Of a stretch of 64,000 bases of DNA, positions 1 to 54,911 are shown in pieces. The stretch comes from Myxococcota bacterium (GTDB lineage Bacteria > Myxococcota_A > UBA9160 > JAFDDA01). The stretch spans positions 3,412,209 through 3,476,208 of the forward strand of contig OZ245817.1 in the NCBI GenBank assembly GCA_965228475.1, written 5' to 3'. The translations under genes and the position numbers were made by a program. The notes under the pieces were generated by a model that was given only the letters and a program-made list of their open reading frames with translations, did no database searches and was not told the DNA's origin. Position 1 is the stretch's first letter. Every line of letters begins with the position of its first letter.

Positions 1-456
1 GAGCCACTTCTCCTGGGTCGCGAAGCCGCTCACCACGACCGGGCGCGAGTACACGACGTCCGCCAGGTACGCGCCGAGCAGCACGACGCGCCGGACGCCG
101 AGCTCCTGGGCGTATCCCTCGACGAGGCTGCAGAACTCCCGCCAGCGCAGGTGCGGCTCGGGCCCGACGCCGACGACGATGTCGTGCCCCTCCCGGAGGC
201 TCCCGAAGTGGAACTCCACCGCGGGCCAGTCGATCTCGCGCACCCCGCCCTCTTCGATGCGCACGCGCGGCCGTTGCACCGTGAGGTCGAGGAAGGCGTC
301 GCCTTCGATCCGCGCCAGCGGGGCCAGGCCGAGCTGCTCCGCCACGTAGCGGAGCGCCAGGCTCGCCGCCTCCCCGGCGTCGTTCCAGCCCTCGAAGGCG
401 AGCACGAGCGTCGGGTCGGAGAGCGTCGGCTCGACGCGGCGTACGAGTTCGGTCAC
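1..456 (-). CDS. PAC2 family protein (N-terminal part; gene continues beyond the left edge)
   Basis: Read by hand on the reverse strand from GTG at 456: VTELVRRVEPTLSDPTLVLAFEGWNDAGEAASLALRYVAEQLG... The LVxAFEGWNDAG opening is what I remember for bacterial PAC2 (proteasome-assembly-chaperone-like) proteins. It is absent from the ORF track because it is open at the window edge. GTGA start/stop overlap with the upstream gene (453-456). Confidence 0.55.
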   Translation of the reverse strand, partial: MTELVRRVEPTLSDPTLVLAFEGWNDAGEAASLALRYVAEQLGLAPLARIEGDAFLDLTVQRPRVRIEEGGVREIDWPAVEFHFGSLREGHDIVVGVGPEPHLRWREFCSLVEGYAQELGVRRVVLLGAYLADVVYSRPVVVSGFATQEKWL

Positions 457-1241
457 TTCTTGCGCCCCGCGGCCACGCGGCGCACGGCGTAGTTCCCCCG
501 CTCCTCGTCGAAGTCGAGCTCGAGCAGGCCCTGGTCCTCCGCATCCTCGAGCAGGTCCGAGAAGGAGGAGTAGCCGTGATAGCGCTCGTTGAAGCCCGGG
601 TGCAGACGGCGGATCGCCTGCTTGATCATCGAGCCCCAGACGACGTCGTAGTCGATCGCCATGGACTCGACGACCTCGCACAGGATCTCGAGCGCCTCGC
701 CCTTCTTCACGTCGGCGGGCTTGGTGCCCTTCTTCTTCGAGGCGGTCGCGCGCTTCTGCTGACCGGCGTCGCGGACGAGGTCGTCGTAGTAGATGAACTC
801 GTCGCACGCGGCGACGAGCAGGTTGCTCGTGGACTGCTTCACGCCGCAGCCGATCACGCGCTTGTCGTTTTCCTTCAGCTTCGAGACCAGCGGCGAGAAA
901 TCGCTGTCCCCGGAAACGAGGCCGAAGATGTCGATGTGGGACTTCGCCGCGCACAGATCCATCGCGTCGACCACCATGTGGATGTCCGCACTGTTCTTCC
1001 CGCTCATCTTGCTCTGCGGGATGTCGACCATCTCGACGCCGTTCTGGTGCAGCTCGAGCGCCGACGAGCGGAAGCGGCTCCAATCGCAGTAGGCGCGCTT
1101 GTAGACGATGCGGCCCTTCTCGAGCAGGCGCTTCAAGACCAGGTCGATCTTGAAGGCGGTGCCCTTCTTTCCGCCGGCGGGAATTCCGAGCGCGAGGTTT
1201 TCGAAGTCCACGAAGACGGCGATGCGAGGTTCGGTCGACAT
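453..1241 (-). CDS. NYN (LabA/DUF88-like) domain protein with C-terminal OST-HTH/LOTUS domain
   Basis: 262-aa ORF. N-terminal IAVFVDFENL...YCDW...ADIHMVVDAMD...GDSDFSPLVSKLKE is typical of NYN/LabA nuclease-fold proteins. The C-terminal part (WGSMIKQAIRRLHPGFNERYHGYSSFSDLLEDAE) is OST-HTH-like. Confidence 0.8.
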   Translation of the reverse strand: MSTEPRIAVFVDFENLALGIPAGGKKGTAFKIDLVLKRLLEKGRIVYKRAYCDWSRFRSSALELHQNGVEMVDIPQSKMSGKNSADIHMVVDAMDLCAAKSHIDIFGLVSGDSDFSPLVSKLKENDKRVIGCGVKQSTSNLLVAACDEFIYYDDLVRDAGQQKRATASKKKGTKPADVKKGEALEILCEVVESMAIDYDVVWGSMIKQAIRRLHPGFNERYHGYSSFSDLLEDAEDQGLLELDFDEERGNYAVRRVAAGRKK

Positions 1242-1304
1242 GGAGCAGAGTGTGGCACGTCGGGGAAGGGAGCGACAGACGGTGGCTCGCCCCGGTGCGC
1301 CTCC

Positions 1305-2000
1305 CTAGCGCACGAAACGGTAGCCGTGGCCGCGCACGGAGACGATGTGCTTCGGGCGGGAGGGGTCGCGCTCGAGATAGCGGCGCAGGCGCACGATGAA
1401 GCTGTCGACGACGCGCGTCCGCGTGTCGGGCCGGAGGCCCCAGACCTCCTCGAGCAGATCGCCGCGCGGCACCGCCTCGCCCTCGCGCTCCACGAGGACG
1501 CGCAGGAGCGCCGCCTCCTTGGTCGTCAGCTGGATCCGTTCGTCCCCGGCCTCGATCTCGAATCGGTCGAAGTGGATCTTGGCCGTGCCCACGTCGATGC
1601 TCGGAAGCGCGCCGTCGCGCTGGGCCCCGTCCCAGCGCCGGCGGCGCAGGACGCTGCGCACGCGCGCGAGGAGCTCCTCCAGGCGGAACGGCTTGAAGAG
1701 GTAGTCGTCGGCGCCGTCTTCGATGCCGCGCACGACGTCCTCGGGGTCGTCCTTCGCCGTCAGGATCAGCACGGGAGTGAAGTTCCCCGCGGCACGCATC
1801 CGCTTCACGACCTCGAAGCCCGAGAGCTCCGGCAACATGAGATCGAGCACCACGAGGTCGTAGGCAGCCTCCTGGCTCACGCGCTCGATCGCGGAGCGCC
1901 CGTCGCCGACGACGTCCGTCTCGTAGCCATCGGCTTCGAGGTTGAACTTCAGACCTTCCGCGATGTGACTTTCGTCTTCGACGACGAGGATCTTCGCCAC
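1305..2000 (-). CDS. OmpR/PhoB-family response regulator
   Basis: This is the C-terminal 231 aa of track ORF 1305..4238, from GTG at 2000: VAKILVVEDE...DLVVLDLMLPELSGFEV...ILTAKD (receiver domain) plus LTTKEAALLRVL...RGHGYRF (winged helix). The rest of the 977-aa track ORF is Arg/Pro-rich read-through. Confidence 0.9.
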   Translation of the reverse strand: MAKILVVEDESHIAEGLKFNLEADGYETDVVGDGRSAIERVSQEAAYDLVVLDLMLPELSGFEVVKRMRAAGNFTPVLILTAKDDPEDVVRGIEDGADDYLFKPFRLEELLARVRSVLRRRRWDGAQRDGALPSIDVGTAKIHFDRFEIEAGDERIQLTTKEAALLRVLVEREGEAVPRGDLLEEVWGLRPDTRTRVVDSFIVRLRRYLERDPSRPKHIVSVRGHGYRFVR

Positions 2001-2008
2001 CCGGTCTC

Positions 2009-2929
2009 CTAGGCCGCCGCGCGTAGCGTGACGACGAAACGGCTCCCCCGGCCCGCGCCCTCGCTCTGGGCCTCGACGCGACCGCCGTGACGGCGCACGA
2101 GGTCGCGCACGATGAACAGGCCGAGGCCGAGGCCCGACGCCGTGCGCTGCACGTCGCGGCCGGCCCGGTAGAAGCGCTGGAAGATCTTGCGGAGCTCGCG
2201 CTGCGGGATGCCGATGCCCTGATCCGCGATCTGCACGCGCACCCGGCGCTCCCCGGCCTCGCTGATGCCGACCCGGACGTCGACGGGCGGGTCCGAATAC
2301 TTGACGGCGTTCTCGAGCAGGTTCCGGAAGACGAGGCCGAGCTCGCCCTCGTCGCCGCGCACGAGGGGGTCTTCGTCGGCGTCGAGCCGGATCGATTCCG
2401 GGTCGAGCCCGTGGCTCTCCCGGATCTGATCGATGCACTCGGCGAGCAGCTCGCGCAGGGCGACCCGCCCCTTGTTCGGCGGCGGGGCCGCTTCCTCCGC
2501 GCGGGCCGCGGCAAGCACGTGGGCCACCGTGCGATCGAGGCGCTCGACGTCCTCGTCCATCATCCCGAGGAAGGACGCGCGACGCTCGGCGTCCGGGTCG
2601 CGGCGGCGCAGGGTGTCGACGGCGAGCCGGAGCGAAGCGATCGGCGTCTTCATCTCGTGGGTCACGGCGTCGAGGAAGGCCTGCTGCCGCTGGTTGTGCC
2701 GCATCTCGCGGATCAACCAGGCGCACAGCAGGACGAGGCCGAGGATCACGAGCCCGAAGAAGATCGAGCCGAGGATCAGGAACCACCAGTTCGCCGGCGT
2801 GAAGCCGCGCGCGACGGAACCGAAATCCGAAACGACGAGGATCTGCCAGCCGACGGCGAGCGCGACGGCGAGCACCGTCGCCACCACGCCGATGGCGAGG
2901 CGAAACACCATCGAACGCCGGCTCCACAT
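2009..2929 (-). CDS. Small membrane histidine kinase (two TM segments, no obvious sensor domain)
   Basis: Internal ATG at 2929 (MWSRRSMVFRLAIGVVATVLAVALAV...). H-box FLDAVTHEMKTPIASL, N-box FRNLLENAVKYS, G-boxes DQGIGIP and GLGLGLFIV. It ends 8 nt before the response-regulator start. Confidence 0.85.
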   Translation of the reverse strand: MWSRRSMVFRLAIGVVATVLAVALAVGWQILVVSDFGSVARGFTPANWWFLILGSIFFGLVILGLVLLCAWLIREMRHNQRQQAFLDAVTHEMKTPIASLRLAVDTLRRRDPDAERRASFLGMMDEDVERLDRTVAHVLAAARAEEAAPPPNKGRVALRELLAECIDQIRESHGLDPESIRLDADEDPLVRGDEGELGLVFRNLLENAVKYSDPPVDVRVGISEAGERRVRVQIADQGIGIPQRELRKIFQRFYRAGRDVQRTASGLGLGLFIVRDLVRRHGGRVEAQSEGAGRGSRFVVTLRAAA

Positions 2930-2969
2930 GCCGGGAGGGTACGATAGAATCGGCGCTCGGGAGAAACCT

Positions 2970-4445
2970 TTGCCCCAGCCGCCGCGCCTCCGCGCCCTTG
3001 CCGCCGCCCCCTTCCTGGCGATCCTCTGCGCCTCCTCCTTCGCCGCGCTTCCCGCCGCGGCCGAGCCTCCGCCCGAAGGCCGCTGCCCCTCGATCGCGCC
3101 GGCCGGCGCCGGCGGAGCGACCACGGATGCCATCGCCATCCCGATGCGCGAGGGCATGACCCTCACGCTCAAGGACATCTACTCCCTGCACCACCTCCTG
3201 CCGCGCGAGGTCTGGCGCAACCGCAAGATCTTCTTCCACGAGGGCATGAAGCTCGAGGTGGGGCCCTGCCACCGCCGCTACTCGCTCCCGGTCTGGTACC
3301 ACGACGCCACCGAGCGTCACGCCGACGCCGTCTCCCTCGACGACGACGGCAACCTCACGGGCTACCGCGCCGGCGTGCCCTTCCCTCCCGAGAAGATCCA
3401 CCCCGAGGATCCGGCCGCCGGCGCGCGCTGGGCCTGGAACCACGTCTACCGCTGGCAGGGCGCCGGCCCGCGCGGGCGTTTCCGTCTGACCGACATGCCG
3501 AGCCGCATCGGCAGCGTCGAGGTCTACGAGGGGAGCTTCTTCCAGGTCCAGACGGCCCACCGCGCGGACCTCGGCGCGACGAACTACGAGGCCCCGGAGG
3601 CCGAGGGCTACGCCTTCGTCTCCGGCGGCCGCTTCGAGAAGCCCTTCGACGCCCGGCACCTGGCCTGGCGCCAGATGCGCCCCCTCGATTTCGAGCAGCG
3701 CTTCAAGGAGCCGGACACCACCTTCGTCTACGTCCCCTCCATGCGGAAGTCGCGCCGGGGCGCGACGGCCTGGGTCGACGGCCTCTACCTGCCGACCTAC
3801 CGCGTCGGCCACATCCAGGCCGGCGGCGGCGTCCCCTTCGGCTCGACGGAGTTCGGCCCGGCGGGCGCGATCAACCCGACGGCGGGCATCTCCGCAGCCT
3901 CGAGCGAGCACATCCGCCGCGGCTTCGTCGGCGTGGCCCTGCGCGCGAACGCCTACAAGTGGCACCTGGTGACGAAGCGCGAGGTCCTCGCACCGATCAA
4001 CACGGTGAACCCCGTGTACCCCGAGAGCGAAGAGCGCAACTTCGGCGAATCCGGCCTCTCCCTCGGCAGCGACCGCTGGGACGTCCGCTACGCCGTGGTG
4101 ATCGAAGGCGTCTCCCGCACCGGCAGCAACCCCGTCGGCCGGCTGACCCTCTGGATCGACCATCAGACCGGGCAGCTCCTCTACTACATCTCGCGCAAGA
4201 AGAACCGGCGCATCATCGACATCGGCGTCCTGGCCCACCGCTACAGCGGGGACATCGTCGAGTACCCGGAGTGGCCGGGTGGCGGTCAGGCGCGCGTGTT
4301 CGACCCGGTGGCCGCGTCCTTCTACGGAGAGATCGAGGGCGGCACCGGCTGGCGCCGCGAATCCTGGGACATCCTCTCCATCCCGCCCGACGCCGCCGAG
4401 ATGAAGAAGATCCTCTCGACGAGCGACCTGCTGAAGGGGCGCTAG
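2970..4445 (+). CDS. DUF1329 domain protein (LolA-like / outer-membrane lipoprotein-sorting fold), secreted
   Basis: Part of track ORF 2433..4445. Signal peptide RLRALAAAPFLAILCASSFAALPAAA|EPP. Blocks YRAGVPFPPEKI, WAWNHVYRWQG, VYVPSMRKSRRG, YKWHLVTKREVLAPIN and DRWDVRYAVVIEG...LWIDHQTGQLLY fit my memory of Pfam PF07044. The chosen start is TTG 2970 (GGGAGA RBS 5 nt upstream). The alternative ATG 2928 would overlap the divergent kinase start. Confidence 0.7.
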   Translation: MPQPPRLRALAAAPFLAILCASSFAALPAAAEPPPEGRCPSIAPAGAGGATTDAIAIPMREGMTLTLKDIYSLHHLLPREVWRNRKIFFHEGMKLEVGPCHRRYSLPVWYHDATERHADAVSLDDDGNLTGYRAGVPFPPEKIHPEDPAAGARWAWNHVYRWQGAGPRGRFRLTDMPSRIGSVEVYEGSFFQVQTAHRADLGATNYEAPEAEGYAFVSGGRFEKPFDARHLAWRQMRPLDFEQRFKEPDTTFVYVPSMRKSRRGATAWVDGLYLPTYRVGHIQAGGGVPFGSTEFGPAGAINPTAGISAASSEHIRRGFVGVALRANAYKWHLVTKREVLAPINTVNPVYPESEERNFGESGLSLGSDRWDVRYAVVIEGVSRTGSNPVGRLTLWIDHQTGQLLYYISRKKNRRIIDIGVLAHRYSGDIVEYPEWPGGGQARVFDPVAASFYGEIEGGTGWRRESWDILSIPPDAAEMKKILSTSDLLKGR

Positions 4446-4457
4446 GCCGAGCGCCCG

Positions 4458-7400
4458 CTAGAACGTGTACCGGAAGGTCACGAACAGCTCCTCGCGATCG
4501 GAAACCGGCGTCAGGCCGTTGAAGCGCGTCCGTGTTTCATAGTCGTTGCCCGCGGTGGACGAGAGTGCAAGGGGCACCCGTGCCTGCCTCGCCGAGCGCG
4601 GCTCGCCTCGGAAGGTCGTCAGGCCCGTCGAGACCGAGAAGTTCTCCGTCATGCGGTAGGTGTAGTTCACGATCAGCCCGCTCGAGTTCGACTCGATCTC
4701 GTGGATCAGGGTGAAGCTCGAGATCAGTCGATCCTGCCAGAACCCCGTGAAGGCGGTCAGCGTCATCAGGGCCGAGAAGGGGCCGTCCGGGGTGAGCGCC
4801 TTGTCCGTGTAGCCATCGATCCAGCGCACGAAGAACTGGGCGTTGAAGAAGATCGTCCGGTTGGCATTGAGGAAGTTGATGAAGGTCGGGCGGTCGACGG
4901 ACACGGTGAGGTTCAGCGTGTCGTTGCGCGACCAGCCGTCTTTTTCATGGGTGTTCGAGTAGGGCTCGTCCTCGAACCAGACGAACTCGATGCCCCAGTT
5001 GGTCTTGGTGCGGTCCTCCGCGAAGTCCATCGAGAAGCCGAGTACGTTGCGGCGCTTGTAGAGGAGCCTCGCCTCTCCTCCCCCGTGCCACAGGAAGTCG
5101 CGCCGGCCGAAGCGGCCGTTGCCACCCGCCGAGATGTCCGGGCGTCGTGCCCCGGCCACCGAAAAGAGCGCGGTGATCAGCGTGCAGCTCAGGAGACCCT
5201 GTTCACTGACTGCGCTGCAGTTTTCGTTGTCCGGCAGGAGCCCGGAAAGCGTCGAGAGCAGGATCATGAGGTTGTAGGAGGTCGTCTGGACTTCGCTCTG
5301 GAAGAACTGGCCGGTGCGCGGGTCGATCTGGTTCGCGGCGCCGTTGCACTGGGCGCCGAGGCCCGGGCTCTGCTGGTTGAGCGCAGCCGCGACGGCAGGA
5401 AGGTTCACGCTCAGATCGGTCACGCAGCCGTCGATGAGGGGGTTGTAGCGGAAGCCAACGGGGTCGGTGAAGAAGGAGAACGGGCTTCGCGCCCCGGGCA
5501 ACTGCACCTGCCCGACCCCTGCGATGAAGCGAGTACCGATCGGGCCGTCGAACTGCGGGAAGGCCGAGAGGATGACCGAAGCCTCGGCGGAGTAGAGGTC
5601 GACCCCACCGAACTCGAGAACGCCGTCGCCGTCGAGGTCGTAGCCCGCTCCGCAGATGTCCGTCCCGGCGGGCGCGTTCGGGTGGAAGAACCGGCCCGTG
5701 CCGAACAGGGCTTCCTGCTGATCCGTGAGGAGGCTCCCGCACGTATCCGCGAACCCGAGATCGGCGCCATCGCTCAAGGGATTCTGATGGAGGGCGACGG
5801 CGGGCACGAAGGTCGCGCCGAGCTGCGCCGCGAGCAGTCCTCCGATGCCTGTCCAGGCCACGTCGCCACCGAGCGCGAGCCCGAGCACCGAGCGGATGGC
5901 GATGTTCACGGGCACGGTGAGCGAATCGACCGTGTTGAACAGGTCGAGCGCGCAGTCGCTCTGGAGGACCGGGGCACCTCCGCCGGCCAGCGTCACGCCC
6001 GCGTTGGCCGCGAGCCCGCTGCTGGCGGAGCACAGTACGTCGAAGAATTGCCGATTGCCCGAGGTATGAGTGCCTGCGTTGGCCGGCGACAGGCAGGTCT
6101 CCTCGAACCCGGTGATGCAGGTCCCGAGCCCCGTCGCGCCGGCGATGCGCGGGCGCCCGGTGACCGGATCCGCGTTCCGGTCGTATTCGTTGAAGATGTC
6201 GATGACCGGGACGTCCGGGAAGCCGTAGAAGTTCGTGATGGCGAAGCTGAAGCGGCCGTAGCGGAACTCGAGCCGCAGGCCGGCCTCGAGGCCGCGCGTG
6301 CTGTTCCACGGGTCCTGGGGCCGCTCCTCGCCCGCGAGCCCGACGCCGGTCAGGCCGTGGCCGTAGGCTCCGAACTTCTTCAGGCACACCAGCCAGACCG
6401 TGTAGGGCTCGCCGCAGATGCCGAGGTCCGTCGGCTCGAAGTGGTCGAGGTTCGTTGCCAACTCGAGGCGCACGTCCTCGAAGGGGCCGACGTTCCAGAA
6501 GGACCAGATCGCGCGCAGGGACCACAGCGCAATCCGCGAAGACTCGAGACTCGAGAGGGTCGCCAGGGCGATGTCCTGGGGGTTGAACTGGTCCTGGGCC
6601 CGGAAGAGCTCCGTCTTGCCCCAGACCGTCGTCTGGCGCCCGACGCGCAGGAAGAGCTGGCCGTCGAGGAACTCGATGTCGAGGTAGGCCTCGCGAAGCT
6701 CCTTGACCTGCTGCTGGCTCGCACCCCGGTTCCACTGGAGTTCGTTCTCGCTGAAGTTCACGTCGAGATCGTCGAGGTCGTCGATGATCTCGCGGAGGCG
6801 AGGCGAAGGCGAGAACAGCGAGCCCTGGGCCGGTCGCAGCGGGAGGGGGATCGGGATCGTGGCCGGGCCGGCGAGCGTCGTCACCGCGGTCGGCACGTTT
6901 CGCAGCGCCCCGTTGGCCTTCACGTCCTCGGGTGTCCACGGCCCCAACGGAGCGGTGAGCGGCCCCACGGACCCCTGGATGTGTTTGACGGCGAACTTGA
7001 AGTCCGAGACCGGTCCGAGGGTACGCGCCAGAGCCAGCTCGGTCGCGGCACCGCCGATGCCGAGAATCGTGTCGAGCGGCGGGATCTCCGCGACCCCGAC
7101 CAACCGCGCCCCCGACCCGTGCACCCGTCGCGATGGGCTCGACGGGTTGCGGAACCGTCCGGTGAAACCGCTCGACCGGCCGTTCGTGAACTGGGACGGC
7201 GCCCGGTTCGCCTCGTTGCCCCAGAGGCGCTGTCCGGTGGCGATGTGGCACATGGACTGCCAGACGCAGTCGTAGCGCCCCTCGACGCGGATGAAGCCCT
7301 GGAGGAGCGAGATCGGGCCCCAGCCGTCGGGCAGGAGGTCGAACTCCGCCTCGAGGCTCAGCGTGTGGGCCCATTGGTGCGGGTTGAAGTTGGTGAGCTC

Positions 7401-7595
7401 GAAGCTGTCCGCGATGCCGCGGAACTCCATCTGGTAGGCGCCGTGCAGCTCGACGAAGCCGTTACCGAACTCGATCGCGCGGCCGGGAGAGGAAACCAGG
7501 ATCGCTGCCGCCATGGACAGCGTGAGCGAAATCAGAAAGCCGGGCTTGCGACTCTTCTTCGACGTCGAGCGCACCACACCATCCGGACGGGTCAT
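4458..7595 (-). CDS. Giant DUF1302-like outer-membrane beta-barrel protein, paralog A (1045 aa)
   Basis: ATG 7595 is preceded by GAGGAGGAGGG. Signal peptide ...LSMAAAILVSSPGRA|IEF. Core block NRGASQQQVKELREAYLDIEFLDGQLFLRVGRQTTVWGKTELFRAQDQFNPQD. C-terminus ELFVTFRYTF, the terminal-Phe OMP signature. Collinear with the next two genes. Confidence 0.8.
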   Translation of the reverse strand: MTRPDGVVRSTSKKSRKPGFLISLTLSMAAAILVSSPGRAIEFGNGFVELHGAYQMEFRGIADSFELTNFNPHQWAHTLSLEAEFDLLPDGWGPISLLQGFIRVEGRYDCVWQSMCHIATGQRLWGNEANRAPSQFTNGRSSGFTGRFRNPSSPSRRVHGSGARLVGVAEIPPLDTILGIGGAATELALARTLGPVSDFKFAVKHIQGSVGPLTAPLGPWTPEDVKANGALRNVPTAVTTLAGPATIPIPLPLRPAQGSLFSPSPRLREIIDDLDDLDVNFSENELQWNRGASQQQVKELREAYLDIEFLDGQLFLRVGRQTTVWGKTELFRAQDQFNPQDIALATLSSLESSRIALWSLRAIWSFWNVGPFEDVRLELATNLDHFEPTDLGICGEPYTVWLVCLKKFGAYGHGLTGVGLAGEERPQDPWNSTRGLEAGLRLEFRYGRFSFAITNFYGFPDVPVIDIFNEYDRNADPVTGRPRIAGATGLGTCITGFEETCLSPANAGTHTSGNRQFFDVLCSASSGLAANAGVTLAGGGAPVLQSDCALDLFNTVDSLTVPVNIAIRSVLGLALGGDVAWTGIGGLLAAQLGATFVPAVALHQNPLSDGADLGFADTCGSLLTDQQEALFGTGRFFHPNAPAGTDICGAGYDLDGDGVLEFGGVDLYSAEASVILSAFPQFDGPIGTRFIAGVGQVQLPGARSPFSFFTDPVGFRYNPLIDGCVTDLSVNLPAVAAALNQQSPGLGAQCNGAANQIDPRTGQFFQSEVQTTSYNLMILLSTLSGLLPDNENCSAVSEQGLLSCTLITALFSVAGARRPDISAGGNGRFGRRDFLWHGGGEARLLYKRRNVLGFSMDFAEDRTKTNWGIEFVWFEDEPYSNTHEKDGWSRNDTLNLTVSVDRPTFINFLNANRTIFFNAQFFVRWIDGYTDKALTPDGPFSALMTLTAFTGFWQDRLISSFTLIHEIESNSSGLIVNYTYRMTENFSVSTGLTTFRGEPRSARQARVPLALSSTAGNDYETRTRFNGLTPVSDREELFVTFRYTF

Positions 7596-7692
7596 TTCAC
7601 CCTCCTCCTGCTCGACCCCTCGCATGTGCTGCGGAATCCGGCCCGAACCGCCGGCAGCCACCGCACCTTCCCCCAGCGATCGGGCTCCGCGC

Positions 7693-7722
7693 ATTATGAA
7701 CCGCGAAAGCGGAGGGCCTCAA
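7693..7722 (-). promoter_or_regulatory. Candidate sigma70-type promoter for paralog A
   Basis: On the reverse strand: TTGAGG (7722-7717), an 18-nt spacer, then CATAAT (7698-7693). It lies about 100 nt upstream of ATG 7595. Pattern match only. Confidence 0.3.
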
Positions 7723-7745
7723 GGATTTTCGCCCTCGAGGCCCTC
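7712..7745 (-). other. Perfect 9-bp GC-rich hairpin between paralogs B and A
   Basis: GAGGGCCTC (7712-7720) and GAGGCCCTC (7737-7745) are exact reverse complements with a 16-nt loop. It begins 27 nt downstream of the paralog B stop. There is no clear U-tract, so it is not called a terminator. Confidence 0.4.
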
Positions 7746-7771
7746 GGAAGAATCGCGCACGCTCCTCGGAG

Positions 7772-10700
7772 CTAGAACGTCTTGCGCAGGGTGAAGAAGA
7801 GTTCGTCGCGTTCGGTCAACGGCGAGACACCCTGGTAGTTGCTGCGCTGCGTCGCGTCGCAGCACGTGAAGCGCGTGAGCGGGCTCCGCTCGAGGACGCG
7901 CGAGCGGCGCGGCGAGCCGTAGAAGGTCGAGAGGCCGACCGTCGCCGAGAAGGATTCCGAGAAGCGGTAGGAGACCGTGAAGATCTGCCCGCCCGAGTTC
8001 GACTCGACCTCGTGGATGAGCGTGAGGAAGGCGTTCAGGCGGTCCTGCCAGAACCCCGTGAAGGCCGTGAAGGTCGCCAGCGCCGCCACCGGGCCGTCGA
8101 CCTCGAAGGTATCCCGGCGCTCGTAGTTCGGGATGTAGCGGAGGAAGAGCTGCGCGTTGAAGAAGATCGTGCGGTTCGCGTTCAGGAAGTTGATGAACGT
8201 CGGGCGATCGACCGAGATCGTGAGGTTCAGCGTGTCTTCCCGCGAGAAGCCGCGGTCGGCCCGCTGGTTGATGTAGGGCGCGTCCTCGATCCAGGTGAAG
8301 TCCATGCCCCAGGCGGTCTTGCTCCAATCCTCGGTGAAGTCCACGGAGACGCCCAGCACGTTCCGTCGCTCGTAGAAGAGCTGGATCTCCGAGCCGGCGA
8401 GCCAGGTCATGTCGCGCCGGCCATAGCGGCCGTTGCCCCCCGCCCGGAACTCCGGCCGTTGGACGGCGCTCGTCTCGAACAGGCCGTTCAGGAACTCGCA
8501 ACGCGTCGGGGCTGCAACGCTGCAGCCCGAGTCCGGATCGATCAGGCCGGAGATGCCGGCGAGCAGGCGAACGAGGTTCTCCGAGACGATCGCCATTTCG
8601 GTCGGGAAGAGCGTCCGGATCTGCTCGACCGTGTAGCTCGGTCCGGCGTTGTCGAAGTTGATGCGATTTCCCGGGTTTGCGCCGTCCGGAATGGGAACCA
8701 GGTACCCGACGCCGGCGCCGTCGGCCGGATCGTCGTCACACTGGTCGGCATTCGCAGCACTGATGCCGCGGCTGATCAGATCCGCCCGGACCTGAGCCCC
8801 ATAGGCACCGAGGTTCGTCAACCCGACGACGCAGCCGTCGACCGTCGGATCCCAGCGGTACCCGACCGGATCAGAGAAATAGGTGAAGACGCTGCGCGCT
8901 CCGGGAAGCTGGATGGTTCCCACGCCGGGGATGAAGCGCGTGGCGATCGCACCGTTGAGCGGGATGCCGCCGTGCTCCGATTGTGGGAAGGCTTGGTAGA
9001 GGACACTCGCCTCCAGGTTGAACAGGTCGATCCCATCGACGTTGCAGTCGGTCTGATAGAACGGGCCGCATCCGAGCAGCGCCTGCTGCTCCGGGCTGAG
9101 GAAGCCGGTGAAGGAGGTCGCGCCGGTCTGGACCGCGTCGTTTCGGCCCGGGTGCAACGGAATCGTGGCCGTCGAGGGGTCACCCCCGCCGAAGGTCTTC
9201 CCGAGGATGTTGCAGAAGACGAGACAGGCGGCGCTGCCGTTGAAGAAGTCTCCGTCCGCCAGGGTCTGGCCGAGCACGGCCGGCACGTTCCCGAGGCCCG
9301 GGATCGGGTCCGGGTTGTTGAAGATCGAGATGACGCACGACGTGATGGGAAGCAGGTTCCCGAGGTTGCCCGGGATCACGAGATTCTGGGTGGCCGAGCA
9401 CGTCGTATCGTAGAGCTGCCGATTGCCGGAGTGATACGCGAGCGCGTTGCCGACGTTCAGGCAGGCCGGTTCGTTGCCAGTTACGCAGGCCCCGGTGGCG
9501 CCCGAGATCCGCGGACGCCCGGTGTTCGGGTCGACGTTGCGGTCGTATTCGTGGAAGTAGTCAGGCGTCGGGAAGTCGTCGTAGCCGTAGAAATCGGTGA
9601 TGGCGATGGAGAAGCGGCCGATGCGGAACTCGACGCGGGCGCCGAACTCGAAGCCGGTGCCGCTCTCGTAGAAGGCCGGCGGCCGCAGCTCGCCGGCGAT
9701 GCCGAGGCCCGAGAAGCCGTGGGCGAACAGGCCGTACTGCTTCTGGCACACGAGGAACACGGCGTAGGGCTCGCCGCAGTCGCCGATGTCCGCCGGCTCG
9801 AAGTTGTCGAGGTTCACCGCCAGCTCGAGGCGGAGATCCTGGAACGGCCCGACGTCGTAGAACGAATAGACCGCCCGGGCCTGCCAGAGCGCGATCAGGG
9901 ACTCCTCGAAGCTCGGGAGATTCGAGACCGCCACGTCCTGGGGATTCAGCTGGTCCGGCGTTCCGCTTCGGAAGAGCTCCGTCTTGCCCCAACGCGTGAT
10001 CTGCTTCCCGAGCCGGAGCTGAAGGCGCCCTTCGGCCATCACGATGTCGAGATAGGCCTCCTTGAGTTCCTTCGTCTGCTGCTGGCTCGCCCCCCGGTTC
10101 CAGGCGAGCTCGTTCTCGGTGAAGTTGACGTCGGGGTTGTCGTAGTCGTCGATGAAGCGGGTCAAGCCGGCCGAGGGAATGAAGAGCGAGGGGGTCGCGG
10201 GGCGGAAGGGCAGCGCCTTCTGGTCGGGCACGGGAACGCCAGCCAGAGAGCCCGTCGAGTCGATGTGGGTCCCGGGGTCGATCGGGCCGAGCACCGAGAC
10301 CAGCGGATGGAGCGAGCCCTTCACGTGCTTGCTCGTGAACTTCGCCTCGAGCAGCTCGTCACCGAAGGTCCGCTGGATGTCTTCCGGCGAACCGAGCGTG
10401 AGCAGCGTGCTGAAGGGGTCGAAGTCCGCGAAGGAGGCGAGGCGGCTCGAAGGCTGCTCGCGCACGATCGGGTTGAGCGGGTTCGGGAGAACGCCCGTCA
10501 CGCCCCGCGTGCGGCCGTTCGAAATGTTCTCCGGCGCCCGCCTCGCGTCGTCGCCGAAGTAGTTCCACTGGCGCGCCATGTGGCAGGCGTGCTCGAACAC
10601 GCAGTCGTACTGGACGTCGACGCGCGCGAAGGCCTCCACGATGTCGAAGGGCCCGATGCCGTCGGGGAAGAGCTCCGCCTCGAACTCGAGGGAGAGCTTC

Positions 10701-10885
10701 GTGGCCATCTTGCTCAGGAACCAGTTGTGGTCCCGGACCCGATAGCCGTCCCCGATCACGCGGATCTCTTCCGAGAGCGATCCGTGGAGCTGGAGCCGGC
10801 CGTTGAAGGCCTCGAGCGCCGGTGCGACCCCGGGCGTGGCGGCCAGCAGCGCTGCCGCCACGAGCAACGGTCGAACGAGACGCAT
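7772..10885 (-). CDS. Giant DUF1302-like outer-membrane beta-barrel protein, paralog B (1037 aa)
   Basis: Start is ATG 10885 (GGAGGA 6 nt upstream); ATG 10891 is an alternative. Signal peptide MRLVRPLLVAAALLAATPGVAPA|LEA. Core block NRGASQQQTKELKEAYLDIVMAEGRLQLRLGKQITRWGKTELFR. C-terminus ELFFTLRKTF. Confidence 0.8.
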   Translation of the reverse strand: MRLVRPLLVAAALLAATPGVAPALEAFNGRLQLHGSLSEEIRVIGDGYRVRDHNWFLSKMATKLSLEFEAELFPDGIGPFDIVEAFARVDVQYDCVFEHACHMARQWNYFGDDARRAPENISNGRTRGVTGVLPNPLNPIVREQPSSRLASFADFDPFSTLLTLGSPEDIQRTFGDELLEAKFTSKHVKGSLHPLVSVLGPIDPGTHIDSTGSLAGVPVPDQKALPFRPATPSLFIPSAGLTRFIDDYDNPDVNFTENELAWNRGASQQQTKELKEAYLDIVMAEGRLQLRLGKQITRWGKTELFRSGTPDQLNPQDVAVSNLPSFEESLIALWQARAVYSFYDVGPFQDLRLELAVNLDNFEPADIGDCGEPYAVFLVCQKQYGLFAHGFSGLGIAGELRPPAFYESGTGFEFGARVEFRIGRFSIAITDFYGYDDFPTPDYFHEYDRNVDPNTGRPRISGATGACVTGNEPACLNVGNALAYHSGNRQLYDTTCSATQNLVIPGNLGNLLPITSCVISIFNNPDPIPGLGNVPAVLGQTLADGDFFNGSAACLVFCNILGKTFGGGDPSTATIPLHPGRNDAVQTGATSFTGFLSPEQQALLGCGPFYQTDCNVDGIDLFNLEASVLYQAFPQSEHGGIPLNGAIATRFIPGVGTIQLPGARSVFTYFSDPVGYRWDPTVDGCVVGLTNLGAYGAQVRADLISRGISAANADQCDDDPADGAGVGYLVPIPDGANPGNRINFDNAGPSYTVEQIRTLFPTEMAIVSENLVRLLAGISGLIDPDSGCSVAAPTRCEFLNGLFETSAVQRPEFRAGGNGRYGRRDMTWLAGSEIQLFYERRNVLGVSVDFTEDWSKTAWGMDFTWIEDAPYINQRADRGFSREDTLNLTISVDRPTFINFLNANRTIFFNAQLFLRYIPNYERRDTFEVDGPVAALATFTAFTGFWQDRLNAFLTLIHEVESNSGGQIFTVSYRFSESFSATVGLSTFYGSPRRSRVLERSPLTRFTCCDATQRSNYQGVSPLTERDELFFTLRKTF

Positions 10886-10976
10886 GCGCATCCTCCGCGC
10901 CGTGGTCAGGAGCTCCGGAACCCGGTCCAGCCTCGGTCGGCGCGATGGCTGGGCGGAGCAGCGATCGATCGAACTC

Positions 10977-13900
10977 CTAGAACGTCTTGCGCAGTCGGAC
11001 GAAGGCTTCGTCACGGTCGCGGACCACGCCGAGCCCGCGCTCGCTGAAGTCCCGGTAGGCGCCGCTTCCCGTGTTGTTGCCCAGGCTGATCGGATTGATG
11101 GGCATGCGGGTCGACTGCCACTTCCCGTAGAAGAGCGCCATGCCGAACTCCACCGAGAAGCTCTCGCTGAAGCGGTAGCTGATGCTCGGCAGGATGCCGC
11201 CGGACTCCGACATGAAGTCGTAGATCACGGTGAGGCTCGGGTTGAGGCGGTCCTGATAGAAGCCCGAGAAGACCGTCAGCGTGGCCAGCACGTTGAACGG
11301 GCCGTTGCGCGGCATCGACTGCTCGAAGCCCTCGGTGTACTGGAAGAACCACTGGGAGTTGATGAAGAACGTCCGGTTCTGGTTCAGGAAGTTGATGAAG
11401 GTCGGCCGGTCGACCGAGACCGTCATGTTGAAGAAGTCCACTTCCTTCACGCCGTCGAGAGCGTCGTTGTCCGCGACGATGACGTTGTGGAACCAGGTCG
11501 ACTCCACCGACCAGTTGGTCTTCGTGATGTCCTCGGCGAAGTCCATCGAGAAGCCGAGCACGTTGCGCTTCTGGTGCTTCAGCCGGTTCGACGTGCCGCC
11601 GTGCCACACGAAGTCCGAGCGGCCGAAGCGGCTGTTGCCGCCGGCCAGCGCCGAGTTCCGGCGCTGCCCGATGATCGAGAGGAACGCCGATACGTTCGAG
11701 CAGAACTGCGGCGCGGCCCAGGAGCAGCGGTCGGCCGCCAGCGGCGCGCGCGGGTTGAACTCGGTGACGTCGAACTCGTCGGGGTTCAGGACGGCCGTGC
11801 CCGGCGGGTCCACGACGTCGTTGTTCGCGCCGATCAGCGAGAACACGACGAGCAGCATCTGGAAGTTCCAGGAGAAGGCGTCCATGTAGCTGTACCAGCC
11901 TTCGCCCGTGAAGGGATGGCCGTTACAGAACCCGACGTCGCCCGCGATCGGGCAGTTGAAGATCGTCGCGGCCGGGAGGCCGCCGCGGTTCTCCGTGTGG
12001 GTCGGGATCTGGCGGTCCCCGTCGACCGCGAGCTGCCAGCCCGCCTCGACCGCACCCTCGGCGGCGCTGCCGGCCTTGCAGCCCGGCAGGACCACGAGGC
12101 CCGAACCCTGGACGAAGCGCTGACACCAGAACCGGCCGTTGGCCGCGGCGTAGGGGATCGTTCCGGGCTGACCGGCACCGAGCGTCGTCGACGGCGCGTT
12201 CGGCTGCGTGATCCACGCGGAGCTGATCGCGCTGGCCTCGGCGTTCAGGAGGTCGAGACCGTCGGCCTGGCAGGCCGTCCCGTAGAACGGACCGCAGCCG
12301 ATCAGGGCCTGCTGCTGGGGCGTCAGGTTGTCCAGGCCGTTGCTGTTGCCGACGGCGACGTCGAGGTCGACGATCGGGATGTTCTGGGCCGTGATGTTCG
12401 GGCAGTAGCCGAACGGGTCCGGGCCCGGGCAGGTCGTGCCGGGGAGCAGCAGCGCGAGAACCGCGGAGCCGGTGCCCAGGCCGATCTGGTCACCGCCGAG
12501 CGCCAGGCTGATCGCCTGGGCCGGGGTGATCGTGGCGAGCAGGCGGTTCTGCGAGTTGAAGATGCTCTGGGCGCACACCGTCGGGTCGAGGTCCGCCGCG
12601 AAGGCGATGCTCGTGCTGCAGATGAAGGCGAACAGCTGCTGGTTGACCGAGTGCTTGGTCAGCGCTTCGGAGGCCAGCAGGCAGTCGGCCTCGGTGCCCG
12701 TCGTGCACTGGCCGCGCTGGTTGCGCTCCCGCGGGCGGCCCGTGAAGGGATCCACGTTGCGCTCGTAGCGGAAGAGCTGGTCGGCGAAGGGGAAGTCGTC
12801 GTAGCCGTAGAAGTTGGTCAGGGCGAAGGAGAAGGCGCCGTAGCGGAACTCCATGCGCGCGCCGAACTCGAGGCCCTTGATGTCCTCCCAGGGCGCCGGC
12901 GGCCGGGTCAAGCCCGCGAGGCCGAAGCCACTGATGCCGTGGGCGAACAGGCCTGCCCGGATGTTGCAGGCGGGGTTCGGCGTATAGGGCTCGCCGCACT
13001 GGCCGAGGTCCGCGCCCTGGTACGTGTCGATGTTCGCGGCGACCTCGAGGCGCACGTCCTCGAGAGGCCCGACCTGCCAGAGCGACCAGACGGCGCGCGC
13101 CGCCCAGAGCGAGATGCGCGACTCCTCGAGGGAGGGCAGCGTCGAGAGCGCGAGGTCCTGCGGGTTGAACTGGTCCGTGGTGCGGAAGAGCTCGGTCTTC
13201 CCCATCACGATGCTCTGCTTGCCGAGGCGCAGCCACAGCGAGCTGTCGAACAGCTCGATGTCGACGTAGGCCTCCTTCAGGAAGTGGGTCTGCTGCTGGC
13301 TCGCGCCGCGGTTCCACTTGAGCTCCGACTCCCGGAAGTTCTGGTCGAAGTTGTCGAAGTTGTCGTCCGCGATCTGCTGGGCGAGCGCGAAGTTCGGGTA
13401 GTAGATGCCCTGGGCGAACTGCTGCTCGGCGCCGTTCGGGCCGACGATCGGCGCGGGGCGGTAGGGCAGCGCGGCAGTGCCGAAGCACTTCGAGGAGTTC
13501 CACTGGTCCCGGGCCGGATCGACCGGCGCCGCCGGGCCGCCGCCGTCGGCGCGCTGGGGCGTATTGAACTCGGAGCACGGCGCGACCTGCCCGCGCTGGA
13601 AGCCGACCTCGTCGTCGAGGAAGTTGCCGCGCGAGATCAGCTGCGAGCTCGGGTTCGGGCCGCCCGGCAGGAGGTCGCCGTAGGTGACCTGCGGGAGGAT
13701 CGGGTTCAGGTCGCCGCTGCGGAAGGGGTTCGGCTTGTCGCGCAGGGCGCCGGTGCCGTCCACGAAGTTCTTCGGCAGCCACGGGCCCAGGGTCTGGGTG
13801 CCGTTGCCGTTGACCGAGCCGCGCACCTTGCGGAGTCCGAACTTGTAGTCGTCGAAGCGCGAGAGCACGAACGGGGCCGGGTCGTCGAAGTCACCGAGGA

Positions 13901-14513
13901 TCGAGTTCGCGCCTTCCTGGCCGAACAGCGTGTCGATGCCGGGGACGTTGAAGATGCTCGCAGGCTTGCGGCGGCCGCCCGGGAAGAGGCCCGGCTGCTC
14001 GAGCCCGGCGGCCAGGTTGGCGGGGGTCGTCGGCGCCGGGATGCCGAACTTCGTGGGGAGGATGTCGCGCGAGATGCCATGCCGCTTGCGGACGTGGCCT
14101 GTGAACTGGCTTCCGGTGAAGCCGCTGCGGCGCCCGTCGCTGTAGCGCTTGGGCAGCTTCTTCGCGCGGTCCCCGAAGGCGTTCGCCGACGGGAAGACGT
14201 AACAGGCGCGGTCGTAGACGCAGTCGAAGCGGGCTTCCACGCGGGCGTACGCGGAGATGATGTCGAAGGGGCCCCAGCCATCGGGGGCGATGTCGAGTTC
14301 CATTTCCAGGTTGAGCACCTGGTACCACTGGGTGAGATCGAAGTCGTCGGTCCCGTCGAAGTTGCGCGAGATCACGCGCGTCTGGTTCTCGTAGAACCCG
14401 TGGATCTGAAGCGGCCCGGCTTCGATGGCCTGCACGCTCGGCGCTGCAAGCAGCACACAAACTGCGACCCACGCCGACGCAAGGAAACGGCTCGAAATCT
14501 GCACCCCGCCCAT
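10977..14513 (-). CDS. Giant DUF1302-like outer-membrane beta-barrel protein, paralog C (1178 aa)
   Basis: ATG 14513 with GGAGGG 4 nt upstream. Signal peptide MGGVQISSRFLASAWVAVCVLLAAPSVQA|IEA. Core block NRGASQQQTHFLKEAYVDIELFDSSLWLRLGKQSIVMGKTELFRTTDQFNPQD. C-terminus EAFVRLRKTF. Confidence 0.8.
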   Translation of the reverse strand: MGGVQISSRFLASAWVAVCVLLAAPSVQAIEAGPLQIHGFYENQTRVISRNFDGTDDFDLTQWYQVLNLEMELDIAPDGWGPFDIISAYARVEARFDCVYDRACYVFPSANAFGDRAKKLPKRYSDGRRSGFTGSQFTGHVRKRHGISRDILPTKFGIPAPTTPANLAAGLEQPGLFPGGRRKPASIFNVPGIDTLFGQEGANSILGDFDDPAPFVLSRFDDYKFGLRKVRGSVNGNGTQTLGPWLPKNFVDGTGALRDKPNPFRSGDLNPILPQVTYGDLLPGGPNPSSQLISRGNFLDDEVGFQRGQVAPCSEFNTPQRADGGGPAAPVDPARDQWNSSKCFGTAALPYRPAPIVGPNGAEQQFAQGIYYPNFALAQQIADDNFDNFDQNFRESELKWNRGASQQQTHFLKEAYVDIELFDSSLWLRLGKQSIVMGKTELFRTTDQFNPQDLALSTLPSLEESRISLWAARAVWSLWQVGPLEDVRLEVAANIDTYQGADLGQCGEPYTPNPACNIRAGLFAHGISGFGLAGLTRPPAPWEDIKGLEFGARMEFRYGAFSFALTNFYGYDDFPFADQLFRYERNVDPFTGRPRERNQRGQCTTGTEADCLLASEALTKHSVNQQLFAFICSTSIAFAADLDPTVCAQSIFNSQNRLLATITPAQAISLALGGDQIGLGTGSAVLALLLPGTTCPGPDPFGYCPNITAQNIPIVDLDVAVGNSNGLDNLTPQQQALIGCGPFYGTACQADGLDLLNAEASAISSAWITQPNAPSTTLGAGQPGTIPYAAANGRFWCQRFVQGSGLVVLPGCKAGSAAEGAVEAGWQLAVDGDRQIPTHTENRGGLPAATIFNCPIAGDVGFCNGHPFTGEGWYSYMDAFSWNFQMLLVVFSLIGANNDVVDPPGTAVLNPDEFDVTEFNPRAPLAADRCSWAAPQFCSNVSAFLSIIGQRRNSALAGGNSRFGRSDFVWHGGTSNRLKHQKRNVLGFSMDFAEDITKTNWSVESTWFHNVIVADNDALDGVKEVDFFNMTVSVDRPTFINFLNQNRTFFINSQWFFQYTEGFEQSMPRNGPFNVLATLTVFSGFYQDRLNPSLTVIYDFMSESGGILPSISYRFSESFSVEFGMALFYGKWQSTRMPINPISLGNNTGSGAYRDFSERGLGVVRDRDEAFVRLRKTF

Positions 14514-14580
14514 GAAACCCTCCAGCAGACGGCCCGGGTTCGACCCGGCGCCCGTCGCGCGCCCCAGTAACGACACCGCC

Positions 14581-14610
14581 CTTATATGATGAAACGTTGC
14601 GTGATTACAA
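14581..14610 (-). promoter_or_regulatory. Candidate sigma70-type promoter for paralog C (head of the barrel array)
   Basis: On the reverse strand: TTGTAA (14610-14605), an 18-nt spacer, then TATAAG (14586-14581). It sits in the only AT-richer patch of the 300-bp gap upstream of ATG 14513. Pattern match only. Confidence 0.35.
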
Positions 14611-14815
14611 CGGATTCTTGCGAGCGGACGATGTGGTGTAGGGGGGGTTCGGGCCCAGCGGTCCGAAACGCGGCGAACGACGCAGCGCGCGGCGCACTGC
14701 GTCATTCGCGGATCGGCGTCGCGGAATCCGGGCGAAGGCCCCGGATCCGGCTCGACGGACGACGCTGGAGTTCAGGTTTGGCGGGGGCTTGGCGCCGTCG
14801 GGGGCGCGCTTTCGG

Positions 14816-17689: not shown

Positions 17690-17870
17690 GAAGCTCTCTC
17701 CCCCCTCGGTCGAGTCGTGATGGGGCGCACGGGTAGCCCGGCATTTCGAACCCATCAAATGGGTTGTTTTACACACGCCTCTCGGGGCCCCGGCGAGCGC
17801 CCCGTCCGCAACGCGTCGGATGTGGGCCCGCGAACTTGAGCCCGGCCCGCCCACCGGTTGAGCTCCTTGA

Positions 17871-48789: not shown

Positions 48790-48800
48790 CCCGCCGCCCC

Positions 48801-49460: not shown

Positions 49461-49567
49461 GAGGCGTCTCCAAGGGGTCGTCGACCTGCCACTCATCGGC
49501 AGGACCGGGCTCCGCCTGAAGCGGCAGGAAGCGCGCGAGAGGCCCGAAAACGCGGTCGATCCGGCCC

Positions 49568-51756: not shown

Positions 51757-51894
51757 GCGGGCAGGATAACGCGCCGGGAGTCCAGCTAAAGCCCCAGGCT
51801 CGATCGGCCGAACTCCCCAGACGATGCACGCGACCGGAACAGCGCGCCCGCGCCCGGCGGGACCCGGGCACGAACCCGCAGGCGGGGCCTCGCG

Positions 51895-54854: not shown

Positions 54855-54911
54855 GACCCGGACATTATAGACGGTCCCTGGGGACCCTCGGATCTGGTAA
54901 CTCCGGAGGCG

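Follow-up and report, generated by a model that had tools for sequence, protein, structure and literature searches.

In a 64-kb stretch of DNA from a Myxococcota bacterium (GenBank assembly GCA_965228475.1, contig OZ245817.1, forward-strand positions 3,412,209 to 3,476,208; hereafter the window, in whose coordinates positions are given unless a related locus is named), a DUF1329 gene lies head-to-head with the gene for a minimal histidine kinase, which is followed by an OmpR-type response regulator, and tail-to-tail with an array of three giant DUF1302-type barrel genes (A, B and C). On balance, we consider it probable, though well short of assured, that these genes form a clade-specific DUF1302/DUF1329 envelope module with a dedicated two-component system and a coupled bidirectional promoter, serving as a route for hydrophobic or lipid molecules. 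An earlier note on this DNA, made from its letters alone (the original prediction), had proposed that the two-component system regulates the DUF1329/barrel module; this interpretation is partly supported, as the two-component system is tied by position to the DUF1329 gene whereas its control over the barrels is unsupported.

The kinase stays with DUF1329 across the clade

The original prediction had set co-conservation in related genomes beforehand as the decisive check, and on this point it held. A survey of related loci with one genome per species yielded 80 loci, all from metagenome-assembled genomes (MAGs) of uncultured Myxococcota or 'Deltaproteobacteria'. DUF1329 is at least 45% identical to that of the window in 78 of these loci, and the 73 with enough upstream sequence were informative for the count. 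The kinase adjoins the DUF1329 region in 70 of the 73 informative loci, being directly divergent from DUF1329 in 68 and separated from it by a barrel gene in two (L044 and L076). In this survey from the DUF1329 side, the regulator comes after the kinase on every contig long enough to show it, and in a reciprocal check from the kinase side all three sampled homologues (3/3) adjoin DUF1329 and DUF1302. Identities in the related loci are 56-84% for the kinase, 59-87% for the regulator, 46-78% for DUF1329 and ~40-70% for the barrels, the two signalling proteins thus being better conserved than DUF1329 or the barrels.

Adjacency alone is weak evidence, since the whole neighbourhood is syntenic, including the housekeeping gene for TopA: across the clade, the block holds alternative complex III, thiolase, two acyl-CoA dehydrogenases, Trm112, PAC2 and NYN, and then TopA and PNP. 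Nevertheless, the link exceeds inherited gene order on three grounds. In L087, a complete genome of 3.67 Mb, a barrel, DUF1329 and the kinase stand together amid unrelated NQR genes and a Mo-oxidoreductase. In the rearranged loci L044, L076 and L088, a barrel is found directly upstream of the histidine kinase-response regulator pair and on the same strand, with a gap of 18 nt between barrel and kinase in L088. Finally, DUF1329 paralogues of ~40% identity elsewhere in the clade lack both the kinase and barrels of this kind in their vicinity. We also considered these paralogues as members of canonical clusters and rejected this reading, as they are orphans between housekeeping genes.

A symmetric element in the divergent control region

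The control region shared by the kinase and DUF1329 genes, predicted to be shorter than 45 bp, spans 40 nt between the two start codons, and the corresponding gene-called gaps in relatives range from 16 to 101 nt. Most of the related intergenic regions carry a symmetric element: TANNNTA occurs in 54 of 69 and the exact heptamer TACGATA in 33 of 71. Its distance to the start of the kinase gene is mostly 12-25 nt, and GGG usually precedes it. The background is low (41 copies in 1.25 Mb of locus sequence, both strands counted), and the element is absent from all three related loci that are devoid of the kinase. When conservation was anchored on the motif, nothing conserved was seen past TANNNTA and the preceding GGG, and no conserved -35 was recognisable. 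A generic scan for sigma-70-like sites returned only two matches in 15.5 kb, one of which (TCCACA-16-TAGAAT at 2923-2950, plus strand) falls on this region.

TANNNTA yields a TANNNT -10 hexamer on both strands and so has the arrangement described for bidirectional -10 elements, in which -7T and -11A pair reciprocally and the two transcription starts lie 18 bp apart (PMC10268837, summarising Warman et al. 2021). On this likeness, the TACGATA of the window is likely a bidirectional -10, and by applying the 18-bp rule to it we infer starts near 2952 (plus strand) and 2934 (minus strand). Such starts would leave an 18-nt DUF1329 leader with a Shine-Dalgarno sequence and a very short kinase leader. 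The Shine-Dalgarno sequence in question, GGGAG at 2959-2963, precedes the TTG start codon at 2970, and homologues share this layout of motif, Shine-Dalgarno sequence and start, with the DUF1329 start codon 30-45 nt past the conserved motif. We set aside the public call for DUF1329, which begins at ATG 2928 (505 aa), and place the start at TTG 2970; with the conserved promoter-like motif sitting downstream of 2928, the public call is probably overlong.

Barrel genes have promoter-like sites of their own

The second of the two sigma-70-like matches in 15.5 kb is the site upstream of barrel A (7722-7693), which is conserved in L002 and L003 and is followed by a conserved motif in the 5' untranslated region (UTR), GGGGGAAGG at 7674-7661 on the minus strand. 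In 56 regions upstream of barrel genes, the k-mers GGGTATAA and GGGGGAA are strongly enriched, and GGGGGAA(G/A)G occurs shortly past the barrel -10 in a long 5'UTR, ~50-250 nt ahead of the start codon, in L002, L003, L008, L024, L046, L064 and others. The promoter-like site upstream of barrel C was found by reading and missed by a stricter sigma-70 scan, and sites akin to it (TTGTCA-N17-TATAA) are present upstream of barrels in other loci. An Rfam scan of 1-15500 gave no credible RNA family, and none for the GGGGGAA motif. Because barrels A and C have their own promoter-like sites and no motif common to the barrel upstream regions and 2930-2969 was found, control of the barrels by the two-component system is unsupported: demonstrably, DUF1329 alone is wired by position to the kinase operon.

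A kinase with the architecture of the intramembrane-sensing type

As originally proposed, the kinase has two transmembrane helices and is devoid of a sensor domain. Pfam assigns it HisKA at residues 82-146 (E 1.8e-10) and HATPase_c at 192-304 (E 2.4e-27) and no PAS, HAMP, GAF or other domain. Two hydrophobic segments (~8-33 and ~48-73) are separated by a loop of ~15 residues, and HisKA begins at residue 82, shortly after the second segment. In intramembrane-sensing kinases such as BceS and LiaS, the input part by definition consists of nothing more than two transmembrane helices with fewer than ~25 aa between them on the outside, and the kinase of the window fits this architecture. Its start at 2929 is backed by a conserved N-terminal M-x-R-R-S, and an alternative start in this lineage, ATG 2911 (300 aa), has GGAG upstream. 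The best 120 kinase homologues in a collection of 5.8 billion proteins are all 278-341 aa long and have the same two domains.

In an alignment of 66 kinase orthologues, the RRS motif and W48 are invariant. The mean frequency of the top residue is 0.85 in the linker from the second transmembrane helix to the H-box, 0.70-0.73 in the transmembrane helices and 0.55 in the periplasmic loop, with residues 147-190, between the DHp and catalytic domains, being the sole segment below the loop (0.50). The poor conservation of the loop speaks against the idea that DUF1329 or a barrel docks at a specific site on the periplasmic side of the kinase.

The protein encoded after the kinase is a regulator of the OmpR/PhoB family, as predicted (Response_reg, E 3.1e-29; Trans_reg_C, E 7e-23). 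Its gene, earlier taken to extend to 2012, is corrected to 1305-2000, so that its GTG at 2000 begins 8 nt past the kinase stop; the other sequence statements of the original prediction proved right. Among NCBIfam models, the kinase core ranks nearest to PnpS/PhoR, with scores below half of the cut-offs, and no equivalog reaches cut-off for the regulator, whose best matches are of the MtrA, RpaB and PhoB types. We rejected a PhoR-PhoB phosphate system, since the equivalog scores are far under the cut-offs (TIGR02966, 164 versus 334 bits; TIGR02154, 175 versus 296 bits) and the kinase has no PAS domain.

The DUF1329 protein and the giant barrels

The product of the DUF1329 gene matches PF07044 with 93.6 bits (cut-off 23.1; E 1.9e-26) in two stretches, which bears out the family assignment. 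It has 713 homologues at E<=1e-5, of which the top ones are 50-78% identical and all contain PF07044. Its N-terminus reads by eye as a Sec-type signal peptide, ...RLRALAAAPFLAILCASSFAALPAAA/EPPPEG (...ALPAAA/EPPPEG), and inspection of this N-terminal sequence revealed no lipobox. Two cysteines, C39 and C100, are conserved. A LolA/LolB-like fold has been claimed for DUF1329 in the literature. NCBIfam holds no family for DUF1329 or for the barrels.

All three barrels score above the gathering threshold of PF06980 (A 49.8, B 56.0 and C 29.7 bits versus 23.2), with best-matching stretches that cover only profile positions ~130-218 of 541. At 1037-1178 aa they are about twice as long as the Pfam DUF1302 model (541 positions) and fall outside the usual DUF1302 size of ~540-650 aa. 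Pairwise identity is 39-44% (44% between A and B, 39-41% between C and either of them). All three barrels start with a signal peptide and terminate in ...TF (...RYTF in A, ...RKTF in C), the usual C-terminus of outer-membrane barrels. Barrel A contains 14 cysteines, and its L003 orthologue is 69% identical; the likely start of barrel B is ATG 10885.

An AlphaFold2 model of barrel B, built with 51 homologues, has a predicted local distance difference test score (pLDDT) of 85.2 and a predicted template-modelling score (pTM) of 0.86. In this model, long antiparallel beta strands at residues 26-449 and 808-1038 enclose a mostly helical insertion of ~360 aa (450-807), and the secondary-structure string contains about two dozen strand segments, an approximate count to be read against the 18 strands typical of DUF1302. 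On the evidence of the model, of its structural matches and of the ...TF termini, A, B and C are predicted to be outer-membrane beta-barrels. Conserved cysteine pairs lie mostly in and around the helical insertion, and this helical, disulfide-rich part may be the substrate-binding part of the barrel.

No solved DUF1302 structure exists according to the literature, and ECLIPSE gave AlgE and Occ as the nearest folds of canonical DUF1302. Comparison of the barrel B model with the PDB by Foldseek gave matches that were no more than weak and local, all of them to barrels of the porin, AlgE or FadL kind (query-normalised TM-score ~0.12); a profile search of the PDB sequences with the barrel found no similar chain, and Foldseek of the barrel model against a viral library was uninformative. 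Among 1.84 billion cluster representatives, HMMER found 744 barrel relatives with E<=1e-3, of which 233 reach E<=1e-30; the top-ranking ones are 980-2205 aa long. Conservation is concentrated in blocks at query positions ~234-470 and ~787-1039, the middle being variable. The giant barrels are a small, unusual subfamily without a close solved structure.

Barrel number varies around a single DUF1329

The original prediction had drawn attention to one DUF1329 as partner for three barrels. Across the related loci, each with one DUF1329 gene, the number of barrels runs from one to four. When loci are delimited by TopA, 21 have one barrel, seven have two, and three barrels occur in the window and in its relative L003, whose A, B and C are orthologous to those of the window (69, 60 and 58% identity, respectively). 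In addition, at least three barrels are present in L016, and in L044 three downstream barrels accompany one upstream. The single barrels of related loci are ~980-1850 aa long and mostly closest to the C type. Since related loci hold one to four barrels, one being commonest, the 1:3 ratio is not system-wide and is a lineage-specific tandem expansion. In L015, an extra open reading frame (ORF) separates DUF1329 from the barrel; we considered it as a part of the module and rejected it because it encodes a Glx-tRNA synthetase.

A second module and the search for RND and BNR partners

The same genome encodes a second module on another contig (L086, 8647-12946), in which a DUF1329 gene (449 aa) is followed on the same strand by the gene for a 981-aa DUF1302 barrel. 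This DUF1329 is 31% identical to that of the window and also matches PF17131 (TP_0789-like). The module is surrounded by genes for a P450, a luciferase-like monooxygenase, an enoyl-CoA hydratase, an acyl-CoA ligase, a TetR protein, a fatty-acid desaturase and an esterase, and it is without a two-component system and without an RND or BNR gene.

The claim that the window holds no RND or BNR partner stood for RND and in part for BNR. A Pfam scan of 27 window ORFs, every candidate of ~700 aa or more included, turned up no member of either family, and the gene calls over 7 kb past the start of the window gave none either. Because several window ORFs of BNR size (~260-430 aa) were outside the Pfam scan, the absence of BNR is not fully demonstrated. 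No unexplained ORF of RND size is present within +-10 kb of the 80 related loci.

Gene calls and neighbouring genes

The G+C content of the window is ~70%, at which spurious long ORFs are frequent, and true genes were picked by third-position G+C together with domain content (Table 1). The minus-strand ORF at 14816-17854 was considered as a fourth barrel and rejected, as it encodes TopA; in most loci of the clade TopA, with PNP beyond, comes directly after the barrel array.

Table 1. Features of the DUF1329/barrel locus and of one further area of the window
Feature	Position	Strand	Basis or remark
NYN/OST-HTH protein	453-1241	-	
OmpR-family response regulator, 231 aa, GTG start	1305-2000	-	Response_reg and Trans_reg_C
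Minimal histidine kinase, 306 aa	2009-2929	-	HisKA and HATPase_c
Divergent control region, 40 nt, between the kinase and DUF1329 start codons	2930-2969		read from sequence
Symmetric element TACGATA (TANNNTA), predicted shared -10	2940-2946		conserved in relatives
DUF1329 protein, 491 aa, TTG start	2970-4445	+	PF07044
GC-rich inverted repeat in DUF1329 stop and convergent spacer	4437-4456		
Giant DUF1302-type barrel A, 1045 aa	4458-7595	-	PF06980
Sigma-70-like promoter-like site of barrel A, TTGAGG-18-CATAAT	7693-7722	-	
Giant DUF1302-type barrel B, 1037-1039 aa	7772-10885/10891	-	PF06980
Giant DUF1302-type barrel C, 1178 aa	10977-14513	-	PF06980
Promoter-like site upstream of barrel C, TTGTAA-N17-ATATAA(G)	14581-14610	-	read from sequence
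TopA	14816-17854	-	next large gene after the barrels
7TM-kinase/GMC oxidoreductase/carboxylesterase area	47041-49473 (-), 49568-51871 (-), 51895-53379 (+), 53376-55661 (-)		

DUF1329 is convergent with the three-barrel array, as the original prediction had it: the DUF1329 stop codon (TAG, 4443-4445) and that of barrel A (4458-4460, minus strand) leave a spacer of 12 nt (4446-4457). The inverted repeat that overlaps this spacer has 10-nt arms, GGGCGCTAGG and CCGAGCGCCC, which are 90% complementary, and a T-run after the repeat is absent on both strands; it could form a putative hairpin common to both convergent transcripts.

In the closest relatives (in L001, at 6753-7529), the regulator gene has next to it, downstream and in the same orientation, genes for a protein with NYN and OST-HTH/LOTUS domains and for a member of the PAC2 family, and a CBS-domain protein takes the place of the NYN gene in L005. 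The NYN and PAC2 genes have no evident tie to the DUF1329/barrel module. Elsewhere in the window, two histidine kinases with 7TM input (HisKA_7TM, 7TMR-DISM_7TM) flank a GMC oxidoreductase near a carboxylesterase; this area, 47041-55661, may be a further membrane-sensing, lipid-related cluster.

Proposed mechanism and rival explanations

In the model that we propose, TACGATA would act as a shared bidirectional -10 from which RNA polymerase would start in the two directions ~18 bp apart, near 2952 and 2934. DUF1329 and the regulator's own operon would be expressed in a coupled fashion, tuned by the phosphorylated regulator, with the barrels being transcribed from strong promoters of their own. 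DUF1329 and the barrels would together move hydrophobic or lipid molecules through the outer membrane and the periplasm, and additional barrel paralogues would broaden the range of substrates handled with one periplasmic partner in common. Our best guess for the cargo is a lipid or another hydrophobic molecule. Uptake would be likelier than export and is favoured because the gene contexts are catabolic: acyl-CoA dehydrogenases and thiolase belong to the syntenic block, in kinase-less loci DUF1329 comes directly after that block on the same strand, and the second module of the genome sits in the P450, acyl-CoA ligase and esterase cluster described above. The sensor-less kinase would most likely read a signal within the membrane, be it the cargo or the state of the membrane, and reporting by a partner protein is possible.

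Several observations weigh against this model, and those that concern the two-component system raise the question of whether it is a mere syntenic neighbour that regulates other genes, the head-to-head order being inherited without regulatory meaning. The adjacency could partly be inherited gene order, as the block is conserved clade-wide, including genes with no plausible link to the module such as that for TopA. In three loci (L014, L049 and L062), DUF1329 and a barrel are retained while the kinase and regulator are absent upstream. DUF1329 there lies directly after a Trm112-like gene on the same strand (L014, ~9650-10000; L049, ~2000-2260; L062, ~7900-8080), and in L014 two acyl-CoA dehydrogenase genes precede the Trm112-like and DUF1329 genes, with the start overlapping the upstream stop. 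(In other loci, the kinase-regulator pair, PAC2 and NYN make up a minus-strand block.) L087 has no regulator adjacent to its kinase, no OmpR-box-like direct repeats were found near 2930-2969, and the barrels, with their own promoter-like sites, yielded no motif common to them and this region. On the other hand, a mere neighbour would not be expected to remain with DUF1329 and a barrel where the flanks have changed, as in L087, or after the rearrangement that places a barrel ahead of the kinase-regulator pair on one strand, and the gap of 16-101 nt carries one conserved symmetric element that is lost along with the kinase. With these points on either side, we hold such a fortuitous neighbourhood to be unlikely. 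The remaining points against the model bear on the module itself. The fold of DUF1329 is unconfirmed, since an AlphaFold2 model from a 22-sequence alignment was unusable (pLDDT 47.5) and a profile search of PDB sequences gave nothing relevant; L029 and L037 show no barrel over 9-10 kb; the genes near the module include neither an inner-membrane transporter nor an energy source; and the periplasmic loop is the least conserved N-terminal segment of the kinase.

Another explanation is that the window encodes part of the canonical four-gene system, which would export an envelope or cell-wall lipid with RND and BNR proteins encoded elsewhere. In Gammaproteobacteria, cofitness ties together the genes for DUF1302, DUF1329, a BNR/Ycf48-like protein and an RND protein of COG1033, export of an envelope component has been proposed for them, and in Pseudomonas stutzeri the four genes are split over two loci (Price et al.). 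AlphaFold co-folding suggests a complex of barrel and DUF1329, and in Pseudomonas putida it suggested that DUF1329 binds RND and BNR proteins too; our inspection covered ~71 kb of a genome of ~5 Mb. By contrast, no RND-sized unexplained ORF lies within reach of the 80 related loci or near the second module of the same genome, and the catabolic contexts (acyl-CoA dehydrogenases, P450, acyl-CoA ligase, esterase) fit uptake better, so that we regard canonical export as improbable. A further alternative concerns the kinase, which might be an accessory-dependent sensor to which DUF1329 or a barrel reports the flux or occupancy of cargo, as for BceAB-BceS and VraG-GraS. The kinase has the intramembrane-sensing architecture and is tightly coupled genetically to the module, and such kinases of Firmicutes use transporter partners, e.g. 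VraG-GraS (PMC7951975); SaeS is another kinase of this class (PMC4388633). However, the poorly conserved periplasmic loop argues against such a contact, and neither DUF1329 nor the barrels have a predicted inner-membrane segment with which to touch the transmembrane helices of the kinase, which leaves this alternative rather doubtful in our view. The most elaborate scheme would be a trans-envelope sensing circuit, in which cargo entering by interchangeable barrels and a shared carrier is read by the transmembrane helices of the kinase, or reported by the carrier, and resets expression of carrier and kinase from the symmetric promoter; we give this circuit little credence.

Significance and comparison with known systems

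DUF1302 and DUF1329 proteins are widespread, and their mutants have lipid-related and pleiotropic phenotypes with no established mechanism. A simple two-component system offers a handle on what the module responds to and, if the regulatory link is true, the regulator's inducer would point straight to the cargo. The one to four barrels per DUF1329 constitute natural variation that bears on the specificity of barrel-carrier pairing. If the sensing circuit were true, Gram-negative bacteria would have a counterpart to the intramembrane-sensing kinases that are coupled to transporters in Firmicutes, and the DUF1302/DUF1329 family would gain its first defined input-output logic. A practical limit is that every member comes from MAGs of uncultured Myxococcota.

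The closest known systems are those of Gammaproteobacteria, in which DUF1329 is likewise adjacent to a DUF1302 barrel (Shewanella Sama_1588-1591; P. putida PP_0765/PP_0766 and PP_2018/PP_2019) and near catabolic genes for fatty acids or hydrophobic compounds. Lipid or ester phenotypes have been reported there: P. putida PP_0765/PP_0766, which have a LuxR-type regulator gene adjacent, are needed on Tween 20 and fatty esters. The barrels described here differ in being two to four times as long, in having a helical, cysteine-rich insertion and in matching the Pfam model only partially. Moreover, there are one to four barrels per DUF1329, DUF1329 and barrels are convergent rather than in one operon, and no RND gene is nearby and no BNR gene was seen. 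The regulators reported for DUF1302/DUF1329 genes are of the LuxR or AraC type, in contrast to the two-component regulator here, and in the literature searched we found no paper linking DUF1329 with a two-component system.

Among kinases, BceS, GraS, LiaS and SaeS of Firmicutes resemble the kinase of the window in their two transmembrane helices, very short outside loop and lack of cytoplasmic input, and they too are encoded beside the envelope machinery that they are presumed to sense. Here, however, the host is diderm, the neighbour is an outer-membrane/periplasmic module rather than an ABC transporter or LiaF-type protein, no partner with transmembrane helices is encoded nearby, and the catalytic core is PhoR/PnpS-like by NCBIfam ranking. 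The predicted promoter has the TANNNTA core of the symmetric -10 bidirectional promoters (PMC10268837), and both of its transcripts would be mRNAs; it differs from them in being a sequence prediction, in a host of ~70% G+C and with no conserved -35. In structure, the barrel part comes nearest, if only weakly, to AlgE, OccD/OprD and FadL, which are substrate-specific channels; the TM-score normalised to the query is only ~0.12, and the helical insertion has no counterpart in them. The two protein families are already known, and what is new here is the two-component regulator, the giant barrel architecture and the variable ratio of barrels to carrier.

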